From a virus (Duplodnaviria; Caudoviricetes): a stretch of DNA of 52,199 bases. Location of the stretch: positions 1 through 52,199 of the IMG/VR virus record IMGVR_UViG_3300046011_003401; one strand, given 5' to 3'. Numbering within the stretch: position 1 is the first letter of the stretch; every line of letters begins with the position of its first letter. Shown here piece by piece: positions 21,434 through 50,165 of the stretch. A program made the translations under genes and the position numbers. The notes under the pieces are model-generated. The model did no database searches and had not been told where the DNA came from. It saw nothing but the letters and a program-made list of their open reading frames with translations.

Positions 21434-21997
21434 ATGTCCGTCGAATTAAAAACAGTAAAGCTATATGGACATTTGGGCAAAAAATTTGGAAAAAGTTTCC
21501 AACTAGCAGTATCCACACCTGCCGAGGCTGTAAGAGCTTTATCTACTAATATTAAAGGTTTTAAACAGTATTTAACTAAACATAGCGCACCAGGTTATCA
21601 TATATTTATTGATAAAAAAGATTTAGCTCAAGATGAACTCAACTATAAAGTATCTTCTGATATTATAAAAATAGTACCTGTTACAGTAGGTAGTGGTGGT
21701 ATTTTTAAAGCAATAGTTGGAATAGTATTAATTGTAGTTGGTATAGTAACTCAACAGCCTTGGATAACCAAAATAGGTATAAGTATGACTCTTTCCGGTA
21801 TTGCAGAAGTGCTATTTGCACCCCCGAAACCTAAGTCATATAATAGTGAAAAACCTGAAAATAGTCCATCGTATATATTTAATGGACCTGTTAATACTAT
21901 TTCTCAAGGGAACCCAGTATCATTATGTTATGGAAAAGTACGAGTTGGTTCTCAAGTTATATCAGCAGGACTTACATCTAGGGAGATACCAATATGA
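21434..21997 (+). CDS. tail assembly protein, lambda gpI-like (ubiquitin-like), copy 1
   Basis: VKLYGHLGKKFG, AEAVRAL, IKIVPVTVGSGG, SYIFNGPVNT..QGNPV.L.YG...VGSQVISAG. Confidence 0.9.
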   Translation: MSVELKTVKLYGHLGKKFGKSFQLAVSTPAEAVRALSTNIKGFKQYLTKHSAPGYHIFIDKKDLAQDELNYKVSSDIIKIVPVTVGSGGIFKAIVGIVLIVVGIVTQQPWITKIGISMTLSGIAEVLFAPPKPKSYNSEKPENSPSYIFNGPVNTISQGNPVSLCYGKVRVGSQVISAGLTSREIPI

Positions 21998-22545
21998 GTG
22001 AATTAAAAACAATAAAACTATATGGTCATCTAGGTAAAAAATTTGGAAAAAGTTTCCAACTAGCGGTAGCAACACCATCAGAGGCTGTGCGAGCCCTATC
22101 AATAAATTTAAAAGGTTTCAAAGAATATTTAAAACAACATAACTTCCATGTATTTTTAGATAAAATGGATATTGGTAAAGAAGAACTTGGTTCTATTACA
22201 ACTGCAGATATTATAAAAATAATACCAGTAACAGTTGGTTCCGGTGGGTTTTTTAAAGTAGTTATTGGTATTGCTTTAATGATATATGCACCAGAGATGA
22301 GTTCTACATGGTTTTCAGTTGGTGCATCAATGGTTTTAAGTGGCATATCAGAAATATTATTTGCCCCACCAAGAAGAAATAAAGATACTAGTACAGAGAA
22401 GCCAGAAAATACACCTTCTTATGTATTTAATGGACCAATAAATACAACAGGTTCAGGTAATCCAGTTTCCTTATGTTATGGTAAAGTACGTGTAGGTTCA
22501 CAAGTTATTTCAGCAGGGCTTACCTCAAGAGAGATTCCAATATAA
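21994..22545 (+). CDS. tail assembly protein, lambda gpI-like (ubiquitin-like), copy 2
   Basis: same motifs as copy 1; identical C-terminus VGSQVISAGLTSREIPI. Confidence 0.9.
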   Translation: MSELKTIKLYGHLGKKFGKSFQLAVATPSEAVRALSINLKGFKEYLKQHNFHVFLDKMDIGKEELGSITTADIIKIIPVTVGSGGFFKVVIGIALMIYAPEMSSTWFSVGASMVLSGISEILFAPPRRNKDTSTEKPENTPSYVFNGPINTTGSGNPVSLCYGKVRVGSQVISAGLTSREIPI

Positions 22546-25500
22546 TGGCACAAAAAGAAATTATAGGTAGTGGTGGATGTTTTCCACAGTATGCTAAAGT
22601 TCTAACAACTTCTGGGTATAAAAATATATCTGAAATAGTTGTAGGTGATGAAGTAATCTCCTATAATGATACAGGTAGACTAGCTACATCAGTAGTAGAA
22701 GAAGTATTTTTCCATAAAAACAATGAGGTATCAAAATATACTTATTGGGGTGGTGAAATATATGCTACTGCTAATCACTGGGTTTTAAACCAACTTAACT
22801 CATTTTCAGAAATAGGTAATTTATCAACCCATGATTGTTTGGTTGATAGTGATGGTACCCTAAGACCAATGATAGTCTCAGAAGAGGCTGGCATTGAAGA
22901 TGTATATAACCTATCAGTAGTACCAGACCATACTTATATAGTAGATGGTATTCGTGTACATAATGGTGGTGGAGGTAAAGGTGGTGGTGCAAGTCGTCCA
23001 GCAGTAGAAGACCCCAATACATTACGCTCAAAACAATTTGCTAGAGTACTAGACCTAGTTTCCGAAGGGGAAATTGGGGGACTAGTCTCGGGTGATCAAT
23101 CCGTATTTATTAATGATGTACCACTACAAAATGCAGATGGAACCTATAACTTCAGAGATAGTTTTATAGATGTTCGTACAGGTACGCAAAATCAAGCAGT
23201 TATTTCAGATTTAAACTCAGTAGAAAATACTATTAATGTATCAACTAGAGTAGAACGCCCTAAATTATTAGAATCTACATATCCACATGCCACAACAGCA
23301 ACTACAAGTTTAACACTAACTTTAGCTAATCATGGATATTTATCAGGTCAAACTTTATATATAGCTTCTAAAACTGGAACTTTACCAGAAAATATATATA
23401 CAATAAATTCTGTTACTCCGGATACCTATACAATTACAGTTCCAAGTGCAACATATGTTGCTGGAATAGTATATGCCAATGCTAGTTTAGTTAATAATAT
23501 TAAAACCGGAACCCATGCAGCCTCTACTTTAGGAAGTACTAAAACTATAACTAAAACTGCACACGGTTTTCAAGAAGGTGAGTCCATTTATCTATGGGCT
23601 AAAGAAGAGCAAGGTGTTACATATACCATAGGTAAAAAAGGTCGTAGATATACGCCAGCAGGAGATTTCTTTCCACTATGCGTTTATACAGTAAAAACTG
23701 TACCAACCGCTAATACATTCACAGTTTTACTAGATGAACCATTAGCATTGAATGCTTCAAGTGTATTTATGCAAAGAGCAACTGGAACAGTCCGTTCAGT
23801 AACTAACCTAGAAGCAGATGAATGTTATATTACTATGGAAGTACCACAACTTACAGAGCAAGATACAACTACTGGAGATTTACACGGTAGTAAAGTATCC
23901 TTTGTAATTAATGTAAAAAATAGCGAACCTTATTCTAAATATGAAAGAGTAGGATTAAGTTATAATACTAAAAATAATGGTACATTGTCTGGTACCGAAG
24001 TTACAATACGTGATTTAGGTACTTACAATAGTACTTCAGGTAGTAGTTCAGTATTATACGCAACACCACCACCAGATGCTAATTCTGGTACAATGTATAT
24101 GTATGGAAATACAAATAGAAGACAATCAGTAGCTATAAAAGGTTATTCAGTATATACCGAAACAGAGGATGCAATAGCAAGTCAACTGGTACTTGGTTGG
24201 AGAACAACTAGTAATAAACAACAAAATATTTCTATAGGAGTATATAAACGTTTAGTTGGTGCCACTAATTGGGAAATACATGCTACAGTAGCATTTACTG
24301 GTAAGAATGAAACCAGAACAACTGCTTCCCAAGGTTTTGGTATTACTAATTCAGTATCTGTGCCAGTTTACACTACTAAAACAGTATTAGTTGAGCATAC
24401 TTTAGCTATTTATGAATATAAGTGCGAAGTTATTGGAGTTGCACAAGGATTATTTGGTTTTACAAATAGATCCTATACCGTTGCTTTCGATACCTTGGGG
24501 GTAATAGAGGGTAAAACATTAGCTAAATATCAACGTGGTTATACAGTACCTTTAAGGGGTGAAGGTCCTTGGCAAGTACAGGTAATCAGAGTAGAAGAAG
24601 AATCAGTAAAAGCAAGTATTTCAAACGAACTATATTGGAGTACATATACTGAAGTAGTAAAAGCTAAGTTAAACTATCCAAATAGTGCTATGATGTATTG
24701 TGCTATAGATGCTGAACAATTTTCAAGTATACCATCAAGATCTTATGAAATATATGGTATCAAATGCAAAATTCCATCAAACTACGACCCACTTAATAGA
24801 ACCTATACAGGTTTTTGGGATGGTACATTTGTAGTAGATTGGACCGATAATCCTGCCTGGGTATTTTATGATTTAATAACAAATACAAGGTATGGTTTAG
24901 GAGATATAGTAACTGGTAGTTTAGTAGATAAATGGACACTATATTCAATTGCTCAATATTGTGATGGTTCCGTACCTACTGGTTTGGGTATTTCTGGTGT
25001 AGTAGTAGGTTCAATATCTGGAACTACTTTAACTATAACTAACCGAAAAAATCTATCCTCTATAGGAGTAGGTTCTATAGTTACTGGTTTTGGTATAGAA
25101 GAATGTACTATTACTGCACTAGGAACAGGTACCGGAGGTATAGGTACATATACTATTAGTAAAGCGCAATCAGTGCCAGTAGGTTCATCTATTAATATTA
25201 TCATTGATGATGTAGAACCTAGATTTACTTGTAATTTATATTTACAAACCCGAGAAGACGCATATAAAGTAGTATCTAATCTAGCCTCTATATTTAGAGG
25301 TATGGTATTTTGGTCTACTGGTTTAGTTACTGCATCTCAAGATTCTCCTAAATCTGTAGATGCTATATATACAGCTGCTAATGTTATAGATGGTACTTTT
25401 ACATATACTGGTACATCGGCTAAAACGCGTCATAACGTAGTATTAGTTTCTTGGAATAATCCTAAAAATGGTTATGCTATTGAAGTAGAGTATGTACAAG

Positions 25501-28500
25501 ATGAGGCTTCTATATTACAAAATGGTATTATACAAACTGAACTATCTGCCATGGGTTGTACCTCTCAAGGACAAGCCCATAGACTTGGTAAGTGGTTACT
25601 ATATACAGAACAATATGAAACTGAAACCGTATCTTTCAAAACAGGTTTAGATGGATTACTTTGTCAACCAGGTGATGTAATCCAAACCCAAGATCCTTTT
25701 AGATCTGGAATTAGACTGGGTGGAAGAGTAGCTGCTGTACAATATAATACTGGTACTAATGTAATAGTAACTGTTGATAATCCTATAAAATTTACAACAG
25801 GTAAAACATATACTGCACTATTTACAAAAGATGACGGTACAGTTATAAGTTTACCATTATCTAACATATCAAATAATCAAAATCAAATAGACCTAATAGT
25901 TAATACAACGCAATCTTTTATTATTCCAGTAGGTTCAGTATGGATAGTATCAGTTAGTGATTTAGCACTACAATCTTGGAGAGTAGTATCAATATCAGAA
26001 CCTTCAAAAGGTGTTATGGGTATTACTGCTTTAAGCTATAATGAAGAGAAATTTAATAATATAGAATATAATCATAGACTACAACCAAAGAAAATAAATA
26101 CACAAACATTAGTTCCAGAACCAGTAGAAAATATTACTATTACAGAACATATGTATTTAATAGCACCGCAAGTACTAAGTAATATATTATCTATTTCATG
26201 GGAAAGCCCAGATACTACTATAGATACTTATCAGGTAACTTATAAAAATATAACTACAAATAGCAATGAAGTAGTAGTATATAGTAATTTACCAAATATA
26301 GAAATATCTTCTATCTCAGAAGCAGAATATACTATATCAGTACAAGCTATAAATTCTTTAGGTACTAAATCACAAAAAACTGAAGTAAATCATGTAGTAG
26401 TAGGTAAAACAGTAAATCCAGCAGATATAACTAATTTTAATTCTAGTCTAGCAAATGATGGGCTAACATTAAGTTGGTCAGCGGTGCCAGATTTAGATAT
26501 TGAATACTATGAGATTCGTTATGGTACATGGGGTTTAGATTCTGCAAATGCTGCTATATATCGTGGTAAAGATACTCAAGTAACTTTATCAACAAAAACT
26601 TATGTATCTGGAAAAACTCATTTATTTTATATAAAAGCTAAAGATACTTCTGGTAATTGGTCTGCTTCATATACATTATCAGGTAGTTTAATAGATAATA
26701 CAACAGCAAAAATACTTCTTACAAAAACTCCAGCACCTGCTATATTACCAATACTAGTAACTAATTCTGTTTCAAGTGTTAGTAATATAATAGCTTTGCC
26801 AAATCCAGCAACTAATGCGCAGCTTTCATTAAATGGTAATATTCTTAAAGTATCTTGGTCTGCACCAGTAGTAAATAGTAATAATATTTCTACATATGGT
26901 TATAGAATTTTTGTTACATCCAACGGTGTAGAATCAGCTGTAGCAGAAGTAACCGGTACATCATATGAATATTTATGGTTAGATAATATACTATCAAAAA
27001 CTTTCAGAATAGAAACTATTGATAATAGTGGGCAATCAAGTTTACCAGACTTATCAATTTCAAAAACATTTACACTACCAAATCAAGTAAATGGAATAAC
27101 CAGTACATTTTCAGCAAATAAATTAACTTTAAAATGGACAGCACCGGTAGTAGATTCTACAGATGCAGCAACTAAACTATATAGAATATATATAGATTCA
27201 GTGGCCATTGCCGAAGTAACTGGTACTACATATGAGTATACTTGGGCAGATAAAAATCTATCTAGAACATTTTCAATAGAAACAGTAGATATAATAAATA
27301 ATGTATCTCCAAGAGCTTCCGTAACTATTCCTGTATTAGTACCAGCAGCTCCAACTGGATTAACAAATACTTTAACAGGCACAACATTAAGATCTACTTG
27401 GAATCATTCAGTATTAGCAAGCAATAGTTTCCCAATAGCTAAATATAATATATATTTTGGTGATGTGGGAAATCCTATTAAAATAGGGGAAACTGTTGCT
27501 AATTCGTATTCTTTGGAATGGACTTATGGTGCAGGGACAAAAGCCATACATATTGAAGCAGTAGATATTAATGGTAATGTATCAAATACTAGAACTACAG
27601 TAACAACTGCTATAGTACCGCCTAATGCACCTAGTAATATATCGGCAACTATGAAAGAAAGTAAATTATTATTTTCATGGAATCCTGCAACTACTGCAAT
27701 CAATTCTTTACCTATCGAATACTATGAATTACGTGAAGGTGGAACAACTTGGGAAAATGCTACATTTGTAGCTAATATTCCTGCTTCTATTAATATACTA
27801 CAGTATTTATATGGTATAACTAATGTAACAGAGTTATCAACTGTACCGGTAGGTACATTAAAGTATAATCAGGCAAAAGTTTTTAGAATAGCATCAAAAG
27901 ATACTTTTGGTCTAGCTTCTACTACTCAAACAACTGTATCAGTAACTTTAACTAAGCCAAGTGCTATAAATAGTTTAAATGTAAATATTGTAGGTCAATT
28001 TATTAATGCAGCCTGGACTTCTATTATTACAGGCACTTTACTAGATGTATTTACTTTACCTATTGATAGATATGAAATTCGTGCAACCCGATCTGCTAAC
28101 GTAGATGAAACTGCATGGAATAATGCCACATCTTTAGCTTCATTAAGCGGTTCAGCAATAGCACTAGACCCTCCAATTAATCCCAGCGTAGATCCTTTAA
28201 ATAATGCCGATGGAACATGGTACTATTTAATAAGAGCATACGATTCGTTTAATACAGCAGGGGCTTTAGCAAATAAACAACTAACTATAACTAAACCAAC
28301 TAAACCACTTAATTTCTTTAATAAAGTTATTGATAATAATATACTATTAAACTGGGAAGATTCAGCGCAACATAGTTTCCCTATAGCTACATTTATGTTA
28401 AAGAAATCTTTTAGTCCATTAGCAACATATACTCAAGCAGAAACTATTGGTACTAAGTCAGGTAATTTTACTACAGTATTTGAAGAAACCTCTGGAAACT

Positions 28501-29627
28501 TCACTTACTTTTTAGTTGCCATAGATACAGCAGGTAATATTAGTGATATGTCTCATACAAATGCTGTTGTAAATCAACCACCAGATTATGTACTAACTGG
28601 TGATATTTACCGAGATAACTTTAATGTAACAACTTATGGTTCTAATACAGTAACTTCTACTAGAACTAATATAGTTAAATCCGATGCTTTAGGTACTACA
28701 GGTATTAATAAGCTTATTGGTCCTATGAGCCCTACTCAAACTTTTGAGACTCATTTTACTGGTAATTCTTGGACAATTATACAAGATCAACCAAATGCCG
28801 GATATCCTATATATGCACAACCATCAACAAATACTGGTACTTTAACAGAAGTTATTGACTATGGCATTATTTTTAATACCAATCAATATGTATCAATAGC
28901 TACTGATATATCTAATATATCTGGTACAACTGGTACATATCAAGTTATATTAAGTACAAGTACTGATGGTATTACATATACCTCTGCAAGTTCAGCAGTA
29001 CAACCAGGAACCAACATTAATACAACTTTCGGTGTATTTGCAAGTAGTTTTAGATATGTTAAAGTTGAGATAATTTTAAACTCTAATACTACTGGTATTG
29101 ACTTACTTCGTATCAATGATTACAGATTAAAATTAAGTATTAAATATACTAATGATGGTGGTAGTGGTCAAGTATCAGATAATGGAATCTATCAAATAAA
29201 TCTATCGGGTAGTGGAAGTGGTTATACCTCAATTCCTACAGTAACAATAGGTGGAAATGGTACTGGTGCTAAAGCTAGAGCAATTATATCTGGTGGAACG
29301 GTTACTGGTATTGAGGTAACTAACTCAGGTTCCGGCTATACCAGCATACTTCCAGCTAATATTACTATTACTGGCGGTGGCGGTGGCGGTGCTGTAGTTG
29401 CTTCAATCGTTAAAACATCCGCAACTTCAGGAACTATAGTTGCATTTAATTATGATTATTTAGATGTCAGTGGAATACAAATAACTTATGGTGGTACAAC
29501 ACCGGGAATAGCTATCTATGATTTTGTAGATACTACATATCCTAAGTTTTTTAGAGTATTATTATTTAATAATTCTGGTACTCCTATAACTGGTAACTTT
29601 TCATGGTCTGCAAAAGGAACAATATAA
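22545..29627 (+). CDS. central tail fibre / tip attachment protein, lambda gpJ-like, with N-terminal Hint domain, insertions and FN3 repeats
   Basis: VLDLVSEGEIGGL, DAEQFSSIP.RSY...G, WTDNPAWVFYDL.TN.RYGLG, EPRFTCNLY, GCTSQGQAHRLGKWLLYTE; many FN3-like W/Y repeats. Confidence 0.93.
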   Translation: MAQKEIIGSGGCFPQYAKVLTTSGYKNISEIVVGDEVISYNDTGRLATSVVEEVFFHKNNEVSKYTYWGGEIYATANHWVLNQLNSFSEIGNLSTHDCLVDSDGTLRPMIVSEEAGIEDVYNLSVVPDHTYIVDGIRVHNGGGGKGGGASRPAVEDPNTLRSKQFARVLDLVSEGEIGGLVSGDQSVFINDVPLQNADGTYNFRDSFIDVRTGTQNQAVISDLNSVENTINVSTRVERPKLLESTYPHATTATTSLTLTLANHGYLSGQTLYIASKTGTLPENIYTINSVTPDTYTITVPSATYVAGIVYANASLVNNIKTGTHAASTLGSTKTITKTAHGFQEGESIYLWAKEEQGVTYTIGKKGRRYTPAGDFFPLCVYTVKTVPTANTFTVLLDEPLALNASSVFMQRATGTVRSVTNLEADECYITMEVPQLTEQDTTTGDLHGSKVSFVINVKNSEPYSKYERVGLSYNTKNNGTLSGTEVTIRDLGTYNSTSGSSSVLYATPPPDANSGTMYMYGNTNRRQSVAIKGYSVYTETEDAIASQLVLGWRTTSNKQQNISIGVYKRLVGATNWEIHATVAFTGKNETRTTASQGFGITNSVSVPVYTTKTVLVEHTLAIYEYKCEVIGVAQGLFGFTNRSYTVAFDTLGVIEGKTLAKYQRGYTVPLRGEGPWQVQVIRVEEESVKASISNELYWSTYTEVVKAKLNYPNSAMMYCAIDAEQFSSIPSRSYEIYGIKCKIPSNYDPLNRTYTGFWDGTFVVDWTDNPAWVFYDLITNTRYGLGDIVTGSLVDKWTLYSIAQYCDGSVPTGLGISGVVVGSISGTTLTITNRKNLSSIGVGSIVTGFGIEECTITALGTGTGGIGTYTISKAQSVPVGSSINIIIDDVEPRFTCNLYLQTREDAYKVVSNLASIFRGMVFWSTGLVTASQDSPKSVDAIYTAANVIDGTFTYTGTSAKTRHNVVLVSWNNPKNGYAIEVEYVQDEASILQNGIIQTELSAMGCTSQGQAHRLGKWLLYTEQYETETVSFKTGLDGLLCQPGDVIQTQDPFRSGIRLGGRVAAVQYNTGTNVIVTVDNPIKFTTGKTYTALFTKDDGTVISLPLSNISNNQNQIDLIVNTTQSFIIPVGSVWIVSVSDLALQSWRVVSISEPSKGVMGITALSYNEEKFNNIEYNHRLQPKKINTQTLVPEPVENITITEHMYLIAPQVLSNILSISWESPDTTIDTYQVTYKNITTNSNEVVVYSNLPNIEISSISEAEYTISVQAINSLGTKSQKTEVNHVVVGKTVNPADITNFNSSLANDGLTLSWSAVPDLDIEYYEIRYGTWGLDSANAAIYRGKDTQVTLSTKTYVSGKTHLFYIKAKDTSGNWSASYTLSGSLIDNTTAKILLTKTPAPAILPILVTNSVSSVSNIIALPNPATNAQLSLNGNILKVSWSAPVVNSNNISTYGYRIFVTSNGVESAVAEVTGTSYEYLWLDNILSKTFRIETIDNSGQSSLPDLSISKTFTLPNQVNGITSTFSANKLTLKWTAPVVDSTDAATKLYRIYIDSVAIAEVTGTTYEYTWADKNLSRTFSIETVDIINNVSPRASVTIPVLVPAAPTGLTNTLTGTTLRSTWNHSVLASNSFPIAKYNIYFGDVGNPIKIGETVANSYSLEWTYGAGTKAIHIEAVDINGNVSNTRTTVTTAIVPPNAPSNISATMKESKLLFSWNPATTAINSLPIEYYELREGGTTWENATFVANIPASINILQYLYGITNVTELSTVPVGTLKYNQAKVFRIASKDTFGLASTTQTTVSVTLTKPSAINSLNVNIVGQFINAAWTSIITGTLLDVFTLPIDRYEIRATRSANVDETAWNNATSLASLSGSAIALDPPINPSVDPLNNADGTWYYLIRAYDSFNTAGALANKQLTITKPTKPLNFFNKVIDNNILLNWEDSAQHSFPIATFMLKKSFSPLATYTQAETIGTKSGNFTTVFEETSGNFTYFLVAIDTAGNISDMSHTNAVVNQPPDYVLTGDIYRDNFNVTTYGSNTVTSTRTNIVKSDALGTTGINKLIGPMSPTQTFETHFTGNSWTIIQDQPNAGYPIYAQPSTNTGTLTEVIDYGIIFNTNQYVSIATDISNISGTTGTYQVILSTSTDGITYTSASSAVQPGTNINTTFGVFASSFRYVKVEIILNSNTTGIDLLRINDYRLKLSIKYTNDGGSGQVSDNGIYQINLSGSGSGYTSIPTVTIGGNGTGAKARAIISGGTVTGIEVTNSGSGYTSILPANITITGGGGGGAVVASIVKTSATSGTIVAFNYDYLDVSGIQITYGGTTPGIAIYDFVDTTYPKFFRVLLFNNSGTPITGNFSWSAKGTI
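22578..22964 (+). other. 129-aa Hint (mini-intein / bacterial intein-like) domain with Gly at +1
   Basis: block A CFPQYAKV, block B T.NH, block F DVYNLSV..DHTY, block G VHN; flanks GSGG|C and HN|GGGGKGG. Confidence 0.9.
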
Positions 29628-42902: not shown

Positions 42903-43496
42903 ATGGCAACCCCCGCAAAGGTAAATCTAGTAATTTATCAAGGCTCTACTTTTAGCGAAATCCTTCGTTGGGAGAGTAGCAGAAAAGTTTATAAACCTAT
43001 TACAGGTATAACTAATGCAGCGCCAGTTATTATAACTGCGCCGCTTCATAGTGTTCCAGATGGTTGGAGAGTTAGATTTACCAATGTAATTGGTATGAAA
43101 GAAATTAACTCAGCTGCAGATACTTATTCTACAGCAGTATTAAAAACAGAAAATACCATTGAAATTAATGCAATTAATAGTATTGCATATACTCCATATA
43201 CCTCAGGGGGTATTTTAGAATATAACGAACCAATAGATTTAGCTGGATATACAGCACGTATGCAAATACGTAATAAATTAGGTGATACAACATACTTATT
43301 AGATATGACTACTGAAAACGGTAGAATAATTCTTAATAATTCTGTTAAAACTATAGAATTAAAAATTACAGCTACTGATACTGCAGCTATTACTTGGACT
43401 AGCGGTGTATATTCACTAGAACTAGTATCTGCTGGTGGTGTAGTATCAACATTGATGAATGGTACTGTAACTGTAAAACAAGAAGTTACACGATAA
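42903..43496 (+). CDS. fibre-anchoring collar-like protein (T5 p132/LtfC-like) with an inserted E1-FCCH-like domain
   Basis: NLVIYQGSTF...PIDLAGYTARMQIR...GVYSLELV...GTVTVKQEVTR; insert ITGITNAAP...GMKEIN...AYTPYTSGG. Confidence 0.6.
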   Translation: MATPAKVNLVIYQGSTFSEILRWESSRKVYKPITGITNAAPVIITAPLHSVPDGWRVRFTNVIGMKEINSAADTYSTAVLKTENTIEINAINSIAYTPYTSGGILEYNEPIDLAGYTARMQIRNKLGDTTYLLDMTTENGRIILNNSVKTIELKITATDTAAITWTSGVYSLELVSAGGVVSTLMNGTVTVKQEVTR

Positions 43497-43630
43497 TGTT
43501 TGAAGATCAAATTATAGTACCTACGGTTATAGTTCCTGTAATTTTGACCCAACATACTTCTTCAACTATATATACAGTAGAATTTGATTCTACATATACT
43601 ACTCTGGTAACTACCAATGAATACTTATGA
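43496..43630 (+). CDS. 44-aa hypothetical protein (MFEDQIIV...), not in the ORF track
   Basis: TAATG-coupled start; shares 20 bp with the start of the next gene. Confidence 0.45.
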   Translation: MFEDQIIVPTVIVPVILTQHTSSTIYTVEFDSTYTTLVTTNEYL

Positions 43631-43931
43631 AGATCAAATTATAGTACGTAATGTAGTTGAAACTACTACTTTAGTATCCCAAGGGGCTCCCGGCCCTAAA
43701 GGGGATACTGGTATTCCGGAATCATCAGTTCCTTACAGTAAAAATGTAGATTTTGCATCTGATACTGTAGTATATAGGGCTGAAGCAGCAGTAGGCTCTT
43801 TAAATAGTGCGCCTGTGTGGAGAATTAGAAAAACAGTTATAGTTGGTGAAACTGTAACAGAAACATGGGCAAGCGGTACTGCCTTATTTAATAAAATATG
43901 GGATAATAGAATATCCTACATATATAGTTAA
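43617..43931 (+). CDS. hypothetical virion protein with a short collagen-like motif
   Basis: QGAPGPKGDTG; VWRIRK...WA.G...F.KIWDNR.SY.YS. Confidence 0.65.
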   Translation: MNTYEDQIIVRNVVETTTLVSQGAPGPKGDTGIPESSVPYSKNVDFASDTVVYRAEAAVGSLNSAPVWRIRKTVIVGETVTETWASGTALFNKIWDNRISYIYS

Positions 43932-43940
43932 GGGTATCGA

Positions 43941-44198
43941 ATGGAAAAGTTATTTATGTTATTTGCTGATGGTATTGCCAGCGGTGGACCGGCAGCAATT
44001 ATACTAATATTACTAGGGGTTATAGGAATATTAGTTTGGGATAGATTGGGTTTAATTAGATCTATGAAAGAAAACTCCTCACTATATCGTAGTGATATTA
44101 ATAGGGTTATTGATAAATATCAAGAAGGTCAAATTAATGTTATTCAAGCATTAAATGACATTAAACTAATCTTGGTAAAGGTAGAGGCTAAAGTATGA
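43941..44198 (+). CDS. single-TM holin-like membrane protein
   Basis: GGPAAIILILLGVIGILVW followed by an amphipathic coiled-coil tail. Confidence 0.55.
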   Translation: MEKLFMLFADGIASGGPAAIILILLGVIGILVWDRLGLIRSMKENSSLYRSDINRVIDKYQEGQINVIQALNDIKLILVKVEAKV

Positions 44199-45133
44199 GC
44201 CCCCTAGAAAGTTTATCTAACCTAATATTCTGGAGGAAGTCGTATAAAGATGCAATAGCCACTGATCTAAGTTCATTAGACTCTATTAATTCCAGATTAG
44301 AGGAGGTGGTATTAGATACTTCCTCTATTTCTAAACGTATTATTCGTAAACTCGAAAATAAAATTGAGTATATTCAACAGGAACTTTCTGAAAGGGAGGA
44401 ACTACTAGGTCATGTATTTTCAGGTGTATCTGACGTATTAATATTAAAAGATGGTGAAGGTCGTTGGAAACTTGTAAACTCTTATGGCAAAAAAGTATTT
44501 GGTATAGAACATAACGAATATAAAAACAAAACAGATTTTGAGATGTGTGATGTATCTCCAAGATTTAAAGAAATGTTTGAGTTATGTATAAAAACAGATA
44601 TTCAAGCATGGGAAACAAAAGAAATTATTGAAACTGAAGAACGTTCTGTAGATTCCTTTGGTGAAGAAGTAGTTTTTGATGTGATTAAAACCCCAATATT
44701 TAATGAAGACGGTTCCAGAAAGCATCTATTAGTTCATGGTAAAAATGTAACTGAAGAATTAGCTAATACAAAGCATATACGTATGCTAATGAATGCTTTA
44801 AATAAAGCATCAGATAGTATAACTGTTACAGACCATAATCATAATACTATTTATGCTAATGAAGCATTTTTAGACTTATATGGTTATAGCTTGGAAGAAA
44901 TATTAAATAAACCTAGAAAAATAGTAGCATCTGGTCAGACTCCAAATGAAACATATATTAGTATGTTTGAAAAAATTACCAAAGCTTTACCCTGGGCTGG
45001 TGAAATGATAAATAAAACTAAGTCTGGTGAAATATTGAATGAATTGATTTCAATAACTCCGGTTTTAAATGGGAAACCATATCCAATATACTATATTGCG
45101 GTAAATAGACCCCTCAATAAGGAAAATATATGA
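44195..45133 (+). CDS. coiled-coil + tandem PAS-domain protein with no output domain
   Basis: PAS1: DVLILKDGEGRW..VN...KTD...D......KTPIFNEDG...GKNVTE; PAS2: DSITVTD....IYANEAF..LYGYSLEEIL.K...I.ASG.TP...Y..M...W.GEMINKTKSG. Confidence 0.88.
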   Translation: MSPLESLSNLIFWRKSYKDAIATDLSSLDSINSRLEEVVLDTSSISKRIIRKLENKIEYIQQELSEREELLGHVFSGVSDVLILKDGEGRWKLVNSYGKKVFGIEHNEYKNKTDFEMCDVSPRFKEMFELCIKTDIQAWETKEIIETEERSVDSFGEEVVFDVIKTPIFNEDGSRKHLLVHGKNVTEELANTKHIRMLMNALNKASDSITVTDHNHNTIYANEAFLDLYGYSLEEILNKPRKIVASGQTPNETYISMFEKITKALPWAGEMINKTKSGEILNELISITPVLNGKPYPIYYIAVNRPLNKENI

Positions 45134-45540
45134 GTGAAGTAGAACAATGCCCAACCGCAACAATGTATCCAGAAGTTAATTTAGCTAATCATTTAGCTTG
45201 TATAAAATTAGCTAATCTAGGTCCTGCAGATCCAAGACAACCAAGTGTTTTGTTTTGGGGTGATAAAATGATAAAGTGGCAAGTAAAAGAAGGTGAGGCT
45301 AGAACTCGTCTTTGTATGAATTGCGAATATTATGATAATTCACCAGAAAATCTACTATGTGTAGCTACTGGCCCTGGTGGACAACTAAAAGCATCTGCAT
45401 TACCAGTAGTTCCTAAATGGGCTGATATTGATGGTATGCCTTCTGCAGTTTGTACTAGATGGGGTATTACTTGTTCTGCTCTACGTACTTGTGATGATTG
45501 GGATCCAATTGTAGAAGAAGAAATAGATGAAGAGGATTAA
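45130..45540 (+). CDS. Cys-rich putative metal/Fe-S-binding protein
   Basis: 8 Cys: CP.AT, CMNC.YY, C..W.I.C....TC..W; acidic tail; ATGA-coupled to the PAS gene. Confidence 0.6.
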   Translation: MSEVEQCPTATMYPEVNLANHLACIKLANLGPADPRQPSVLFWGDKMIKWQVKEGEARTRLCMNCEYYDNSPENLLCVATGPGGQLKASALPVVPKWADIDGMPSAVCTRWGITCSALRTCDDWDPIVEEEIDEED

Positions 45541-45542
45541 TA

Positions 45543-45914
45543 ATGTCCACATCTCTAATAATTAATTTTGGTGATATTTTAAAAAGCGATACCGCAGCTA
45601 AATTTTGGGTATTTTTTACTACTTTGCCAAACTCAATAAATAATTTTGGACATACTGATGCTATACTAGTAAAAGATATTAATTCAACTGATATGACTGG
45701 ATTAATTGCAGGAGCTTCTAGTATTACATATACTTTTGATTACGGTAATAATTCACAGGGTGGTCGTACACCAAATACTCCAGTAGCTATTACAGTGGTT
45801 GGACTAGGCTTAGAAACTAGTCAATATGTTAAAGCTACTACAACTATTACGAATACCCCCTTTAACTCAGTATCTTTAGTGTCTTTACTTGAACGTAATT
45901 ACCTAAATAATTAA
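45543..45914 (+). CDS. hypothetical protein, probably structural
   Basis: beta-rich; FDYGNNSQGGRTPNT...ERNYLN. Confidence 0.6.
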   Translation: MSTSLIINFGDILKSDTAAKFWVFFTTLPNSINNFGHTDAILVKDINSTDMTGLIAGASSITYTFDYGNNSQGGRTPNTPVAITVVGLGLETSQYVKATTTITNTPFNSVSLVSLLERNYLNN

Positions 45915-45925
45915 GGAAAGCAATA

Positions 45926-47515
45926 ATGACTGATTTCATTTCACTTCCACCAGATGGTGTAGGTAAAAAAGTAAGACATAGAGTATTAGCGGATTTAATT
46001 GTTATTAATCAATCAACTCCTCCACTAATCTATTCGACCATAGTAGGGTCAACATCTTTAGCAACTGCTATTATAGATAGTATTGATACTGATGTAAAAG
46101 GTAGATTAAACTATTACTTATCTGATATAACGGGCACATTTATAGCTGGCGAAGTATTAAGAAATACTACTAATACCGTTAACTATGCTACTATCTCAAC
46201 AGTAACTCCCAATATTTATACACCTCAAGTTAATATATCTGATGCTAATAATCCCTCTCATACTCAAAAGGTAGATAAACGAGGAGCAGCAGTAGCTACA
46301 TTCCCAGAAGGTACTCCACAATTTGATTCTTTTGGTCGTATGCAAGTATCACAAATGTTGGCTGTTGGTGAATACTACCATGTAGGTGCTGATCAGCCTG
46401 GTAAGTATTGGAATGATACTAATGGCACTGGTTCTATAACCTATAATCAAGCATCGAGTTCTATTAAATATAGTGCTGGTACAGCCTCTGGTGATAGAGC
46501 CTATAGAACTACTAATCAATATCACCCATATAAACCAGCAACATCTAATTTAATTTATACATCAGTAGCTTGTGGAGACGCAGGTAAAACTAATGTAATA
46601 CGTGAGTGGGGTTATTTCGATGACCTTAATGGTTTTGGGTTTAGATTAAATGGTACTACCCTACAAGTATTTATTCGTTCAGATGTTACTGGAAGTGTTG
46701 TAGATACCATAGTAAACCAAGCTAACTGGAATAATAATATTCTAGATAATAGTACAGCGTCAGACTTTGTTTTAAATCTAACTAAACTAAATATATTTTG
46801 GATGGATTTTGAATGGATGGGTGCAGGTACCATTCGTCTAGGTGTAGTAACTCCTGATGGAAGACGTATTACTTGTCATACTTTTGAAAATACTAATAAT
46901 GTTACTTTACCATTTATGCGTACGGCTACATTGCCACTACGTTGGGGTATAAAAAATACTGGCATATCTGCTAGTACATCTGAAATGAGTGTAGTTGCTG
47001 GTGCAGTATTTACTGAATCTGCCGATGTTCAATACTCTGGTACTTTAATTCATACAAGCCCACCAAATCCGATTGTATTAGTAAATTCTGATGTATATAG
47101 ACCTTTCCTATCTTTTAGACCAAAACTAACTGTTGGTGGATATCCTAATAGAATTATTGGTATACACGAGGCTTTTGATTGGGCAAGTATTGGTGATTCA
47201 GCAGTTCATATTGGAATATTCGTAAACCCTAGCTCACTAACAGGCGCTATTTGGTCTGATTCTATAGTTCCTACAAGTATGTTACAAGTTGATAGATCTG
47301 CTAGTGAAATGTCTCAAGACGGCACTTTAATAGAATCATTCCTTGTTGGTCCTAATAGTGCTGATAGAGTTACATTGGGTGATAGGTTAGAAAAATCTTT
47401 TGAACTACCAGCAGATGGTGTAACTCAACCAGTATTTGTATTTGCTGCTAAAGTACTAAAAGCTGATACAGCGGTTAGTTTCTTTTATACAAAATATTGG
47501 AAAGAGATTAGATAA
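45926..47515 (+). CDS. hypothetical virion protein, beta-sandwich/lectin-like
   Basis: LPPDGVGKK start; FDSFGR..VS, WGYFDD.NGF.F, IFWMDFEWMGAG.IRLG. Confidence 0.65.
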   Translation: MTDFISLPPDGVGKKVRHRVLADLIVINQSTPPLIYSTIVGSTSLATAIIDSIDTDVKGRLNYYLSDITGTFIAGEVLRNTTNTVNYATISTVTPNIYTPQVNISDANNPSHTQKVDKRGAAVATFPEGTPQFDSFGRMQVSQMLAVGEYYHVGADQPGKYWNDTNGTGSITYNQASSSIKYSAGTASGDRAYRTTNQYHPYKPATSNLIYTSVACGDAGKTNVIREWGYFDDLNGFGFRLNGTTLQVFIRSDVTGSVVDTIVNQANWNNNILDNSTASDFVLNLTKLNIFWMDFEWMGAGTIRLGVVTPDGRRITCHTFENTNNVTLPFMRTATLPLRWGIKNTGISASTSEMSVVAGAVFTESADVQYSGTLIHTSPPNPIVLVNSDVYRPFLSFRPKLTVGGYPNRIIGIHEAFDWASIGDSAVHIGIFVNPSSLTGAIWSDSIVPTSMLQVDRSASEMSQDGTLIESFLVGPNSADRVTLGDRLEKSFELPADGVTQPVFVFAAKVLKADTAVSFFYTKYWKEIR

Positions 47516-48024
47516 TGTTAGCTAATATATTTGCTTTTTGGGACGATTTAATCGACCCGTTAAAATGTACTTTTGATGGGGAAAATAAGCTAATATATAT
47601 AAATCCAACTGTAACTACTCTAAATGTAAAAGAAGATATTTATTCAGCATTTAAACGCTGGATGTTTAGAGATACTAATGCTAAATATGAAATGGGTATC
47701 CGCTCTATTGGTGGAGACCCAATTTCAGTTGGTGTAACTGCTGGTGAGATGTACTTCTTAATTAATGGTTGGCAGGTCTATACAGACCATAATGTTAAAG
47801 TTAATGGTGTACTATATCATGATGACGGGTTGGATGTTTATATTGGTCCAGGTGGGGTTACTTCTGTAGTATCTAGTATTGTAACTGGATATGTGGTTTC
47901 TACACCGCAACAAATTGCAACAGCAGTTTGGACAGAACCTACTAGTACAGGTACTGAGGGCTCTTTTGGATATCATTTAACTAATAAAGTACTTACTGTT
48001 ATTAAATTCTTAGGGCTTAAATAA
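47515..48024 (+). CDS. hypothetical protein, probably structural
   Basis: FDGENKLIYI...DIYSAFKRW...IGGDP...YFLINGW; TAATG-coupled. Confidence 0.6.
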   Translation: MLANIFAFWDDLIDPLKCTFDGENKLIYINPTVTTLNVKEDIYSAFKRWMFRDTNAKYEMGIRSIGGDPISVGVTAGEMYFLINGWQVYTDHNVKVNGVLYHDDGLDVYIGPGGVTSVVSSIVTGYVVSTPQQIATAVWTEPTSTGTEGSFGYHLTNKVLTVIKFLGLK

Positions 48025-48374
48025 TGCTTTCAACAATTTTATTTAGTTTAACTGTAGGTCAACTACTTACATATGGGTTTTTATTAGCAATAGTTATATT
48101 TATTATTGCTATCATATTAATTTCTAGAGATAGCAGAGTTAAATATAGATTAATTGACTTAATCAGTAATCCAGATGGTACAGCCTCATTAACTAGATTA
48201 CTTCAATTATCTGCTGGTGTTACTGGAACTTGGGTTGTAATTAAGCTAACTCTTGCCAACACTTTAACTGTAGATATATTTGGTGTATATTTAGCTGCTA
48301 TGGGTATTTCTGAAGGCTTTACTAAGTGGATTCAATCTAAAAAAGGTACTAATAATGATACTACTATTTCTTAA
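48024..48374 (+). CDS. holin (about 3 TM segments)
   Basis: hydrophobic helices and a charged C-terminus; first gene of the lysis cassette. Confidence 0.6.
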   Translation: MLSTILFSLTVGQLLTYGFLLAIVIFIIAIILISRDSRVKYRLIDLISNPDGTASLTRLLQLSAGVTGTWVVIKLTLANTLTVDIFGVYLAAMGISEGFTKWIQSKKGTNNDTTIS

Positions 48375-48723
48375 AACATATTTTAGACAAATAGCTTTTA
48401 TAATTATTTTAGGTATTGCTGTATTAGCAATATATAATAAAGGTTACCAATCTGGATATAATAATAGAGTAATACACTATGAAAAAATCCGTATCGAGGA
48501 TAGAAATATTTTAGTTGGTAAAATAGATAATCTAGAAGCATTAAGTATTGGTATGTCTAAAGATGTAGTTCGTAAACAAGTTAAATTAAGTAAAGACTTA
48601 AATAATCTTACTTTAGATATAAAAAATAATAAATCATTTGTTATAAAAAATGGTGAGTGTATCCCATCAGAATATTTTATAAATACATTTAATTCCGTTA
48701 TTGATAGAGCGAATCAAAAATGA
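48355..48723 (+). CDS. inner-membrane spanin (Rz-like)
   Basis: N-terminal TM, then YNKGYQSG, coiled coil and C-terminal Cys (GECIP). Confidence 0.7.
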   Translation: MILLFLKTYFRQIAFIIILGIAVLAIYNKGYQSGYNNRVIHYEKIRIEDRNILVGKIDNLEALSIGMSKDVVRKQVKLSKDLNNLTLDIKNNKSFVIKNGECIPSEYFINTFNSVIDRANQK

Positions 48724-49016
48724 AAAATACTATAATATTTATACTTTTATTATCTTTAACGGCTTGTGGAACTTTTTTTCAAAAACAAGATTTGCCAATA
48801 ATTTTAACCGAGCAAAATACAGAGTATTTAGTACCTGAGGTTAATATTGACCAATATTTATTACTAGAATGTGAGCAATTAAATCCTTTAATTAAAACGG
48901 ATAATTTTACTGATATTTTATTAACTACTAAGGATAATGCAGCTTTATATACTTCTTGTAGAGATAAACACTCTGCATTAGTAAAAATATTAAAATCTTC
49001 ATTAAATATTAAATGA
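48720..49016 (+). CDS. outer-membrane spanin lipoprotein (Rz1-like)
   Basis: lipobox LTAC; LLLEC..L...N...Y..CRDKH.ALV. Confidence 0.78.
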   Translation: MKNTIIFILLLSLTACGTFFQKQDLPIILTEQNTEYLVPEVNIDQYLLLECEQLNPLIKTDNFTDILLTTKDNAALYTSCRDKHSALVKILKSSLNIK

Positions 49017-49441
49017 GTAACTTTACAATAGAAGAACTCTGTGCATCTGAGTCAGCAACTAGATTAGGTATTAAAAATATACCTACTGCTAATTCACTAG
49101 TTAACTTAAATAGTTTAATAGTGCAATTAGAGAAAGTAAGAGAGATACTTGGTAATAAATCTATACATATTAATAGTGGATATAGAAGTCCTACTCTTAA
49201 TAGATTTATAGGTGGTTCTAATACATCTGCACATTGTTTTGGTTATGCGGCGGACTTTACTTGTAAAGACTTTGGTACACCAAAACAAATAGTACAAACT
49301 ATAAAAGATAGTGGTTTAAAATATGACCAACTAATCTATGAAGGCACTTGGGTTCATATCAGTTTTGATCCAAATAAAATGCGCCAACAAACATTAACTG
49401 CAACATTTTCAAAAGGGAAAGCGTCTTACTCTAATTTTTAG
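49013..49441 (+). CDS. endolysin, peptidase M15A family
   Basis: NFT..EL, INSGYRS..LN..IGG...SAH..G.AAD, WVHIS. Confidence 0.88.
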   Translation: MSNFTIEELCASESATRLGIKNIPTANSLVNLNSLIVQLEKVREILGNKSIHINSGYRSPTLNRFIGGSNTSAHCFGYAADFTCKDFGTPKQIVQTIKDSGLKYDQLIYEGTWVHISFDPNKMRQQTLTATFSKGKASYSNF

Positions 49442-49472: not shown

Positions 49473-50165
49473 ATGTCAAGTAAAAAAGCCCGTAATTTTC
49501 AATTTAAAGATTCTACTAAACCAGAGGATTTTAAATCTAATTATCAGTTTAAAGAGGTACACCCTTTAAACTACATTCAAGGGGAGTATTTAGATGCTAT
49601 TAAGCATAACGATATTATATTTGGTATTGGTTCGGCAGGTACTGGTAAAACATTTATCGCAGCTTCGTATGCAGCGTCTGAATTGTTTCACCGCAGGGTT
49701 CAAAAAATAATTTTAACAAGACCAAATATAGAAACTGGTAGAGGATTAGGATTCTTACCAGGTTCTATAGATGAAAAATATGCACCATATTTATTACCGT
49801 TTGACGCTATATTTTCTAAAGCATTAGGTAAAGGCTTTTATGAGTATGCTTTAAAAAATAAAGATATAGAGCCAACTCCACTAGGTTTTTTACGTGGTTC
49901 TACTTTTGAGAACTGCATTGTACTAGTAGATGAGGCACAGAATTGCACTAAAGAAGAATTAAAAATGCTTCTTAGTAGAATTGGTAGAAATTGTAAAATG
50001 ATTATTAGTGGTGATACTGAACAAGCTGATATAGATTATTCTGGATTAAGCGATGCAGTAGATAGATTAGAGGGTATTCCCGGTATTGAAATCGTAGAAT
50101 TTCTTGATGAAGATATTGTGCGGAGTAAAATGTGTAAACAAATTATTATGGCTTACAGGGATTAA
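49473..50165 (+). CDS. phoH: PhoH-family ATPase
   Basis: GSAGTGKT, LTRP, LGFLPG, LRGSTF, VDEAQN, GD..Q.D, DIVRS. Confidence 0.93.
   Translation: MSSKKARNFQFKDSTKPEDFKSNYQFKEVHPLNYIQGEYLDAIKHNDIIFGIGSAGTGKTFIAASYAASELFHRRVQKIILTRPNIETGRGLGFLPGSIDEKYAPYLLPFDAIFSKALGKGFYEYALKNKDIEPTPLGFLRGSTFENCIVLVDEAQNCTKEELKMLLSRIGRNCKMIISGDTEQADIDYSGLSDAVDRLEGIPGIEIVEFLDEDIVRSKMCKQIIMAYRD

Follow-up and report, generated by a model that had tools for sequence, protein, structure and literature searches.

A conserved membrane protein–PAS gene pair on T5-like, T4-like and jumbo-phage backbones: a candidate two-gene sensory cassette

The uncultured-virus record IMGVR_UViG_3300046011_003401 (Duplodnaviria; Caudoviricetes), whose 52,199 bases in full are referred to here as the window, carries three consecutive genes on the + strand between positions 43941 and 45540. 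The first two encode a small membrane protein and a soluble protein with two PAS domains. These two genes form a conserved transmembrane (TM)–PAS pair, which recurs in viruses with T5-like, T4-like and jumbo-phage backbones, including two cultured phages. The explanation that best accounts for the findings as a whole is a two-gene sensory cassette that is self-contained and passes from one lytic phage to another, to which a probability of about 0.45 may be attached. Its core element, namely that the pair is a membrane-tethered sensor cassette acting by protein contacts, can be held with good confidence. The features of the three genes are:

43941..44198, + strand: 85-amino-acid (aa) protein, predicted single-pass inner-membrane protein (open reading frame (ORF), family alignment, adjacency by hidden Markov model (HMM))
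44195..45133, + strand: 312-aa soluble protein of the layout helix–PAS1–linker helix–PAS2, without output domain (Pfam, AlphaFold2 model)
44270..44422, + strand: long N-terminal helix, residues 26-76 (AlphaFold2, low confidence as a monomer)
44435..44746, + strand: PAS1, residues 81-184, of the Pfam PAS_4 type (Pfam, model)
44816..45112, + strand: PAS2, residues 208-306, of the NifL/MmoS/Aer type that binds flavin adenine dinucleotide (FAD) (profile, fold and NCBIfam matches)
45130..45540, + strand: 136-aa Cys-rich protein, possibly similar to high potential iron-sulfur proteins (HiPIPs) (optional neighbouring cargo)

The ORFs had originally been described as joined by ATGA overlaps, and these are indeed present, at 44195-44198 between the 85-aa and 312-aa genes and at 45130-45133 between the 312-aa and 136-aa genes.

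The TM–PAS pair as an inherited unit

The PAS protein has about 30 stand-alone relatives in metagenomes (290-340 aa), with identities ranging from 94% down to 30%. Profile scans with this family gave 13 loci in viral contigs and 33 in metagenomes (loci carry numbers with the prefix L in the following). Among the latter, 15 contain a stand-alone member of the family, 11 of them with a readable upstream region; L061, L068, L075 and L078 are truncated at the ends of their contigs and were left out of the adjacency count. Another locus, L077, was rejected as a pair member, as it encodes an ordinary cellular hybrid kinase.

In each of the 13 viral loci, the gene immediately ahead of the PAS gene, on the same strand, encodes a small single-TM protein. 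It is recognised as a member of the TM family in 11 loci by BLASTP, and in all 13 by alignment and HMM. A TM-family gene occupies the same position in 10 of the 11 assessable metagenome loci. Several of these loci are near-duplicates, and about 15 distinct pairs are represented. The spacers within the pair are mostly between -4 and +9 nt, and in several loci, including that of the cultured phage Phosso, the pair is flanked by genes on the opposite strand. Together with the cultured phages described below, these counts establish the pair as a real unit; a synteny survey of this kind had been proposed in the original prediction.

Across 105 locus pairs, the pairwise identities of the TM and PAS proteins are correlated (r = 0.93), which shows inheritance as a unit, although such co-variation says nothing on binding. 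Both genes are under purifying selection. The ratio of non-synonymous to synonymous substitution rates (dN/dS), taken from the four closest relatives, ranges from 0.03 to 0.27 in the TM gene and from 0.05 to 0.15 in the PAS gene.

Two cultured jumbo phages have the same arrangement. In Sinorhizobium phage Phosso (469 kb), found via a distant member of the TM family, gene 453 (81 aa) matches the TM family with an hhalign probability of 99.5 and overlaps the beginning of gene 452 (434 aa). The latter is annotated 'PAS domain S-box protein' and matches the PAS profile with an hhalign probability of 91.5. In Agrobacterium phage Atu_ph07 (490 kb), the corresponding genes are gp048 and gp049. The cultured carriers surfaced only via distant TM-family members: tblastn searches with the TM protein of the window gave no match, those with its PAS protein gave just weak matches to PAS domains of the Aer type, and those with the PAS protein of L009 gave no match at an expectation value (E) of 1e-8. 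As a separate point, gp049 (L090:3243-4853) is annotated as a 'multi-sensor signal transduction histidine' kinase; Pfam detects only PAS domains in it, with neither HisKA nor HATPase, and judged by this domain content the public annotation appears to overstate its function.

The other carriers are not relatives of the window phage. The helicase of L008 is 50-53% identical to gp41 of T4-like cyanomyoviruses, and the ligase of L009 is 40% identical to that of PA5oct-like jumbo phages. A homologue of the head protein of the window is present in one of five carrier records, the near-identical one; the records are fragments of 10-49% completeness, in which absence is no proof. For four carriers, the completeness estimates imply genome sizes of about 160-270 kb. 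The carriers thus have T5-like, T4-like and jumbo-phage backbones, and with its occurrence in L008 (T4-like), L009 (PA5oct-like), Phosso and Atu_ph07, the cassette is neither confined to one phage family nor absent from cultured phages.

Three metatranscriptome runs, all from a single sample, yielded contigs that are identical to the window over the matched stretches. These contigs bridge both the TM–PAS junction (44071-45026) and the PAS–Cys junction (44705-45550), at depths that resemble those of neighbouring late genes, and give slight support to expression of the pair.

Anatomy and ancestry of the two proteins

A Pfam scan of the 312-aa protein identifies PAS_4 at residues 76-188 (E 1.1e-15, 58.3 bits, cutoff 23.1) and PAS_9 at residues 206-293 (E 2.6e-16, 60.2 bits, cutoff 27), and no domain beyond these two. 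This bears out the earlier description of a dual-PAS protein that lacks any kinase, GGDEF or helix-turn-helix (HTH) output. The AlphaFold2 model has a mean predicted local distance difference test (pLDDT) score of 81, with both PAS domains at about 90 or higher, and consists of a helix (26-76), PAS1 (81-184), a linker helix (186-204) and PAS2 (208-306). In the model, the chain ends at the last strand of PAS2, with only about six residues beyond the domain. A fold search with the model returns tandem-PAS structures on top, which places the protein in the PAS superfamily. The N-terminal helix is presumed, from the model, to be a dimerisation or docking helix.

The lack of an output domain, taken as any non-sensor Pfam domain, extends to all 16 phage PAS proteins scanned (the window protein plus sets of 7, 6 and 2 others). 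The sensor part is modular, with two PAS domains, three PAS domains or a PAS-GAF-PAS arrangement, while the membrane partner is constant. The PAS-GAF-PAS form is represented by a 484-aa protein at L076:3951-5405, which is likewise the partner of a TM protein.

By sequence and fold, PAS2 can be assigned to the FAD-binding NifL/MmoS/Aer group of redox sensors. The top five matches to PAS2 among all solved structures are MmoS, NifL (twice), a LOV-type 'sensory box protein' and Aer. In this search with the family profile, E is 2e-34 for MmoS (3EWK), 7e-23 for NifL (9QQ6), 1.9e-21 for NifL PAS1 (2GJ3) and 9e-14 for Aer (8DIK), with LOV domains lower. The PAS2 model superimposes on 2gj3 with a root-mean-square deviation of 1.2 A over 114 columns (30% identity, target TM-score 0.91). 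The NCBIfam entry for NifL, TIGR02938, matches residues 199-307 with E 2e-20, a domain-level match that is well under the full-length cutoff. Profile, fold and NCBIfam matches thus agree with the NifL-like character originally proposed for PAS2. For PAS1, the solved-structure search gave no informative relative (best E 0.045).

Whether PAS2 binds a flavin was considered from its pocket. Residues were mapped, via an ungapped profile alignment, to T18, H53, W70, N85 and R115 of Aer, the roles of which are taken from the Aer structure paper (PMC9668731), and were counted over 30 family members. T212 is kept in 24/30, an adenine-stacking aromatic residue at position 258 in 20/30, and N273 in 24/30. 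The equivalent of R115 is Asn in 15 members and Lys in eight. The residue beside the flavin N5, equivalent to H53, is Arg in 15/30 and otherwise hydrophobic, and a Gly/Ala position in the pocket is His in 20/30. Flavin binding appears somewhat favoured, because the top matches are flavin-binding proteins and the Thr, aromatic and Asn positions are kept; the differences at the N5 site and at the Gly/Ala position lower this estimate.

The membrane partner belongs to a family of 63 clusters (85-106 aa), all metagenomic. The 85-aa protein itself has no Pfam, PHROG or NCBIfam family. It was correctly described as a one-TM protein: a single hydrophobic segment is present in 63/63 family members. In all 63, Lys and Arg are also more frequent after the segment than before it (on average 3.8 vs 0.35 in 15 residues). 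The predicted topology is N-out/C-in, with a very short outer part, which would place the conserved tail on the same side of the membrane as the PAS protein, in the cytoplasm. This helical tail has invariant positions (R35, Y60, I74, K75 and L78 in the protein of the window) and the motif IDxYHQGNLxLVQALxEIKxVL. An atlas feature search places the protein near small viral proteins, including an automatically named 'Holin' cluster (0.92) and Holin_BhlA (0.91), which serve as leads only.

Cellular relatives of the PAS protein were sought in a collection with one genome for each of 185,579 species. The family profile finds 41 loci, all of which encode long multi-domain proteins (about 470 to 2,000 aa where intact); none of the 41 is stand-alone, and none has a member of the TM family next door. 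A separate, exhaustive profile search was swamped by generic multi-PAS proteins (206,932 matches), with about 24 stand-alone full-length representatives among the best 150. The cellular relatives come from many phyla (Fictibacillus, Desulfobulbaceae, Ignavibacteria, Caldithrix, Methylococcaceae and others), and the Bacillales kinases that topped a first search are therefore not special. Interference with sporulation, a lead provided by a Bacillales 'sporulation kinase', was dropped in view of the Gram-negative-type lysis genes and of the PAS1-like domains across many phyla.

The best cellular match to the phage PAS protein is just 29-40% identical. The helix and PAS1 share 34-40% identity with the membrane-proximal unit of cellular sensor kinases, in which TM helices are fused directly ahead of the equivalent helix. 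The whole PAS1-PAS2 tandem is found in a 794-aa Methylococcaceae protein, where it is followed by GGDEF and EAL motifs (motifs read by eye). For the helix-PAS1 region (74 rows, 136 columns), a quick maximum-likelihood tree has a branch that sets 24 stand-alone phage proteins apart from the cellular proteins, with just modest support (80 in the Shimodaira–Hasegawa-like approximate likelihood ratio test, SH-aLRT). On these sequence comparisons, the phage PAS protein is best described as the sensory half of a cellular signalling protein, captured long ago and maintained in phages since.

Proposed action, rival explanations and genomic setting

In the sensor-cassette reading, the N-terminal helix of the PAS protein would dock on the tail of the membrane protein, and the two polypeptides would in this way rebuild the TM-helix-PAS arrangement of cellular sensor kinases. 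A flavin in PAS2 would report the redox or respiratory state of the host. Since there is no C-terminal output helix, the signal would have to leave via the N-terminal helix, the membrane partner or the PAS surfaces. With the exit restricted in this manner, the output would be a changed state of the small membrane protein, which is the probable effector. This may adjust the moment of holin firing, much as an antiholin or pro-holin regulator would do, and thereby make lysis track the energy state of the host. The most far-reaching form of this proposal is a portable 'redox-gated lysis clock' across T5-like, T4-like and jumbo lytic phages, in which a flavin-PAS protein on a tiny membrane protein would hold back or set off the holin, depending on the respiratory state that the infected cell is in; this form must be regarded as doubtful.

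The evidence for an involvement in lysis comes from gene order. In the window, the late array leads to a lysis cassette, as originally noted, which begins 2.9 kb downstream of the pair:

48024..49441, + strand: lysis cassette (context, possible sensor target), with holin candidate, spanin-like genes and endolysin
48024-48374, + strand: multi-TM holin candidate (phrog_1322)
48355-48723, + strand: i-spanin-like gene with N-terminal TM segment
48720-49016, + strand: o-spanin-like gene with lipobox LTAC
49013-49441, + strand: M15 peptidase endolysin

In L076, the pair heads the cassette, with the order TM gene, PAS-GAF-PAS gene, holin (phrog_1528), endolysin (phrog_669) and spanin-like genes. In L003, two small ORFs come after the pair, with spanin-like genes and an endolysin behind them, and in L004, L005 and L007 a homologue of the holin candidate of the window is located 300-600 bp upstream of the pair. 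Altogether, lysis genes are found within 3 kb of the pair in 4 of about 12 context types.

Several observations weigh against the proposal or against its lysis part. Lysis genes were not seen near the pair in L006, L008/L010, L009/L011, L012/L013, L014, L064, Phosso and Atu_ph07. The pair instead lies beside genes for thymidylate synthase, DnaB and UvsX in L008 and L010, beside a DNA ligase gene in L009 and L011, beside a cytidyltransferase gene in L012 and L013, and among unannotated genes in L014, Phosso and Atu_ph07. The window already has a full set of holin, spanin and endolysin genes. None of 11 TM-family members matches a holin family of Pfam or PHROGs at E up to 1, and the earlier label 'holin-like' for the 85-aa protein is thus left without homology support; the window also has a holin candidate of its own. 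The pair has one exception in L064, where no TM-family neighbour was detected for either of two stand-alone PAS genes. The contigs from RNA libraries may represent DNA carry-over, come from one sample, and give neither strand nor level. The N5-site and Gly/Ala differences in PAS2 and the modest support for the phage clade belong here as well. The suggested link between PAS protein and lysis is thus supported in part, by the four contexts with lysis genes within 3 kb, among them L076, where the pair is directly ahead of holin and endolysin; the other contexts have DNA-metabolism or unannotated genes around the pair. Such a link is plausible, not general, and control of lysis timing by the pair is a tentative proposal with the odds somewhat against it.

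In L064, an unrelated ORF of 77-84 aa, with a hydrophobic stretch at its N terminus, stands ahead of each of the two PAS genes (L064:1818-2720 and L064:6021-6893). These small ORFs are possibly a diverged or replaced TM partner.

The pair might alternatively be directed at the signalling proteins of the host, and poisoning of host PAS kinases or c-di-GMP (cyclic di-GMP) enzymes had been offered as the alternative in the original prediction. As a membrane-tethered decoy, the PAS protein would form dead-end heterodimers with such kinases or enzymes and silence the host response. Output-less PAS proteins that act by heterodimerisation are known, for example VVD and PER. The resemblance of helix and PAS1 to the membrane-proximal unit of cellular kinases is in keeping with this, as is the occurrence of the same tandem in the Methylococcaceae GGDEF-EAL protein. 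However, a decoy for one host should track that host, whereas T5-like, T4-like and jumbo backbones all carry the cassette, and the carriers include phages of Sinorhizobium as well as of Agrobacterium. The phage proteins also form their own clade at a considerable distance from any cellular protein, and the tail of the TM partner is more strongly conserved than an anchor would need. The diversity of carriers and hosts, together with the separate clade, weakens the decoy explanation, which is rather improbable.

The membrane protein could also serve some membrane function other than lysis, such as redox-dependent superinfection exclusion or control of membrane potential or ion flux. That the pair is away from lysis genes in most contexts, and is autonomous between opposite-strand genes in some, would fit such a role. 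So would the predicted N-out/C-in topology with a very short outer part, in which the partner resembles many small phage membrane proteins. On the other hand, specific evidence points to no one function of this kind, and by a rough estimate the proximity to lysis genes in four contexts exceeds what random placement in genomes of 100-470 kb would give; this explanation, too, is improbable. A recently captured, truncated host fragment without a function has practically no probability left. The PAS protein does resemble the sensory half of cellular kinases or GGDEF-EAL proteins, but this notion is contradicted by the strong purifying selection, the depth of the family (30-95% identity across phage groups), the conserved partner gene, the separate clade, and the lack of a close cellular relative among the 185,579 species.

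The third gene was originally included in the sensory module, and its product does contain eight Cys residues. C62, C65, C108, C115 and C121 are invariant in 40 relatives. No family in Pfam, PHROG or NCBIfam and no solved structure matches the protein by sequence. Relatives of 29-34% identity have been labelled 'high potential iron-sulfur protein' by GenBank depositors. With the structural model (pLDDT 81), all nine Foldseek rows are HiPIPs, at weak E values of 2-10, and in VIA-align just 7 of 48,161 chains reach Z 2, the top six of which are HiPIPs (Z 2.9-3.9). These labels, the weak but exclusive fold matches and the five invariant Cys residues argue for likeness to HiPIPs. In contrast to HiPIPs, the protein is about 50 residues longer, is by eye without a signal peptide, and has no match to the Pfam or NCBIfam HiPIP families. 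On balance, the model-based comparison slightly favours a HiPIP-like iron-sulfur protein. If this is true, a phage-borne iron-sulfur electron carrier is of interest in its own right, and its occasional position beside a redox sensor is notable.

A three-gene redox module, in which the HiPIP-like protein would feed or read electrons for the flavin sensor, could be proposed from the ATGA overlaps and from the fact that both PAS2 and the HiPIP-like protein would be redox-active. Apart from the window, just L056 and L061 have the Cys-rich gene behind the PAS gene. The Cys-rich gene is cleanly missing from L002, where the PAS protein is 95% identical and the flanks align on both sides, and it is absent from L057 (PAS protein 87% identical) and from all distant loci. 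It has no match elsewhere in four other carrier records, all of which are fragments. Moreover, its family comprises at least 143 clusters (49-95% identity), far exceeds the PAS family, and also occurs in phages without the pair. The Cys-rich gene is therefore independent, optional cargo, and not a conserved part of the pair; only the first two genes make up the conserved unit, and the three-gene module is unsupported and very unlikely.

The Cys-rich family is large and restricted to phages, and some of its members are fused to PF11160. In addition, RNA-library and DNA contigs contain a second variant, whose match to the Cys-rich gene is limited to about 100 bases (45412-45515), with six differences at 45453-45483; beyond this match, its sequence is unlike that of the window. 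A relative with the Cys-rich gene in another context is thus present in the same samples.

The window comprises the whole record, which is linear and rated about 50% complete. Its co-directional late module contains genes for the small and large terminase, portal, a fused protease-head protein, tail tube, a 1823-aa tape measure, lambda-type tip proteins including a 2360-aa J-like fibre, and several fibre-like proteins. The three genes at 43941-45540 are part of this + strand array, with the lysis genes further downstream. The closest relatives of the protease-head protein are those of T5-like phages of Klebsiella, Salmonella, Aeromonas, Yersinia and Vibrio, at just 35-40% identity, and a nucleotide search with positions 43000-47000 gave no match among GenBank phages. 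The earlier designation 'T5-like' is thus fair at a distance only. T5-like phages (Demerecviridae) have genomes of about 110-120 kb; the record has 52 kb at a rated completeness of 50%, and an M15 endolysin. A lipobox-containing spanin-like gene and a short M15 endolysin are typical of phages with Gram-negative hosts, and the host of the window phage is on these grounds probably Gram-negative. The same stretch recurs in lake and freshwater metagenomes (20 runs, 15 studies), with four flagged as possible sources. A promoter scan of the window was uninformative (46 sites vs 48.5 expected), and a tRNA scan of the window found none.

Some further genes of the window are of note. Just upstream of the pair, two overlapping ORFs (43496-43630, 44 aa; 43617-43931, 104 aa) both start with an EDQIIV motif, and the longer one has collagen-like G-x-x triplets (GAPGPKGDTG); the two may represent a small fibre-like protein with a duplicated or frameshifted start. 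They are preceded by a phrog_1084 gene (42903-43496), related to L-shaped tail fibre assembly proteins, which encodes 197 aa with an insertion relative to the 123-position profile. A phrog_1084 gene also adjoins the pair in L003, L004, L005, L007 and L063, the contexts of which are otherwise different. Tandem paralogues of the lambda I-type tail assembly protein (21434-21997 and 21994-22545; both phrog_32, E 1e-55 and 4e-51) precede the very long J-like fibre gene (2360 aa, 22545-29627). A gene for a PhoH-like ATPase (49473-50165; phrog_170, E 2.5e-77) directly follows the endolysin gene.

Comparison with known systems

Among known proteins, NifL PAS1 and the PAS-A/PAS-B domains of MmoS are the best matches to PAS2 by both sequence and fold, and the tandem-PAS layout of MmoS is similar to that of the phage protein. 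In NifL and MmoS, the chain goes on to kinase-like output domains. The phage protein, by contrast, ends with PAS2 and has a separate membrane protein; its flavin is predicted only. The residue proximal to N5 also differs, being Arg or hydrophobic in the phage proteins, Glu in NifL, His in Aer and MmoS, and Cys in LOV domains.

Aer from Escherichia coli is described, in the structure paper (PMC9668731), as an inner-membrane energy sensor with a flavin-type PAS domain that is thought to read the respiratory state. The likeness to the phage system is that the signal leaves sideways or N-terminally and not via a C-terminal enzyme, in addition to the match to PAS2 noted above. Aer, however, combines a TM hairpin, HAMP and kinase-control domains with the PAS domain in one polypeptide, which signals to CheA, whereas the phage system is split and without these elements.

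A phage-borne PAS receptor is known from vibriophage VP882. VqmA_Phage (PMC8284805) is a PAS receptor with a DNA-binding domain that couples a small-molecule signal to the lysis decision. It is a soluble protein with HTH output that acts transcriptionally in a temperate phage; the pair has no DNA-binding domain, has a membrane partner, and occurs in phages of the lytic type. In a PAS review (PMC10468136), the only phage PAS sensor retrieved by a term search of the text is the cited VqmA_Phage paper, and the main text of a comparative study of jumbo phages (PMC7824862) does not contain 'PAS' as a whole word.

The cellular TM-helix-PAS kinases (Bacillales P0032-P0042, including one 'sporulation kinase') share the helix and PAS1 with the phage protein at 34-40% identity, and TM segments precede the helix in them as well. 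In the kinases, the TM part is fused and HisKA and HATPase outputs are present, whereas in phages the TM protein is separate and there are no such outputs. The TM parts of the kinases have no detectable relation to the phage TM family.

For the lysis reading, the antiholins of phage T4 provide a model, as they are small membrane-near proteins that adjust holin timing on a signal. In T4 lysis inhibition, the holin T is controlled by the antiholins RI and RIII, with RI sensing superinfection in the periplasm and no PAS or cofactor-based sensor taking part. Scans of 11 family members against Pfam and PHROG holin families gave no sequence or family relation of the 85-aa protein to T4-type holins or antiholins.

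A full-text literature search, in which few subscription journals were covered, found no described sensor of this kind, in line with the initial claim of novelty, and VqmA_Phage as the only phage PAS sensor. While PAS sensors as such are well known, the split, output-less, phage-borne version with a dedicated membrane partner appears to be new. Lytic phages are usually thought to rely on a holin clock, with holin concentration and membrane potential as its only inputs. An output-less sensor cassette common to T5-like, T4-like and jumbo phages would show that lytic phages possess dedicated sensors of host physiology. If a flavin is carried, the cassette would be the first candidate for a device that informs a phage of the redox or energy state of its host, and if the lysis clock holds true, a cofactor-based physiological sensor would control lysis timing in strictly lytic phages. 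Since the pair exists in two cultured phages, adjustment of lytic phages to the metabolic state of the host is directly testable. Compared with the fused sensors discussed above, the split anchor/sensor architecture would constitute a natural example of PAS signalling without any output domain.

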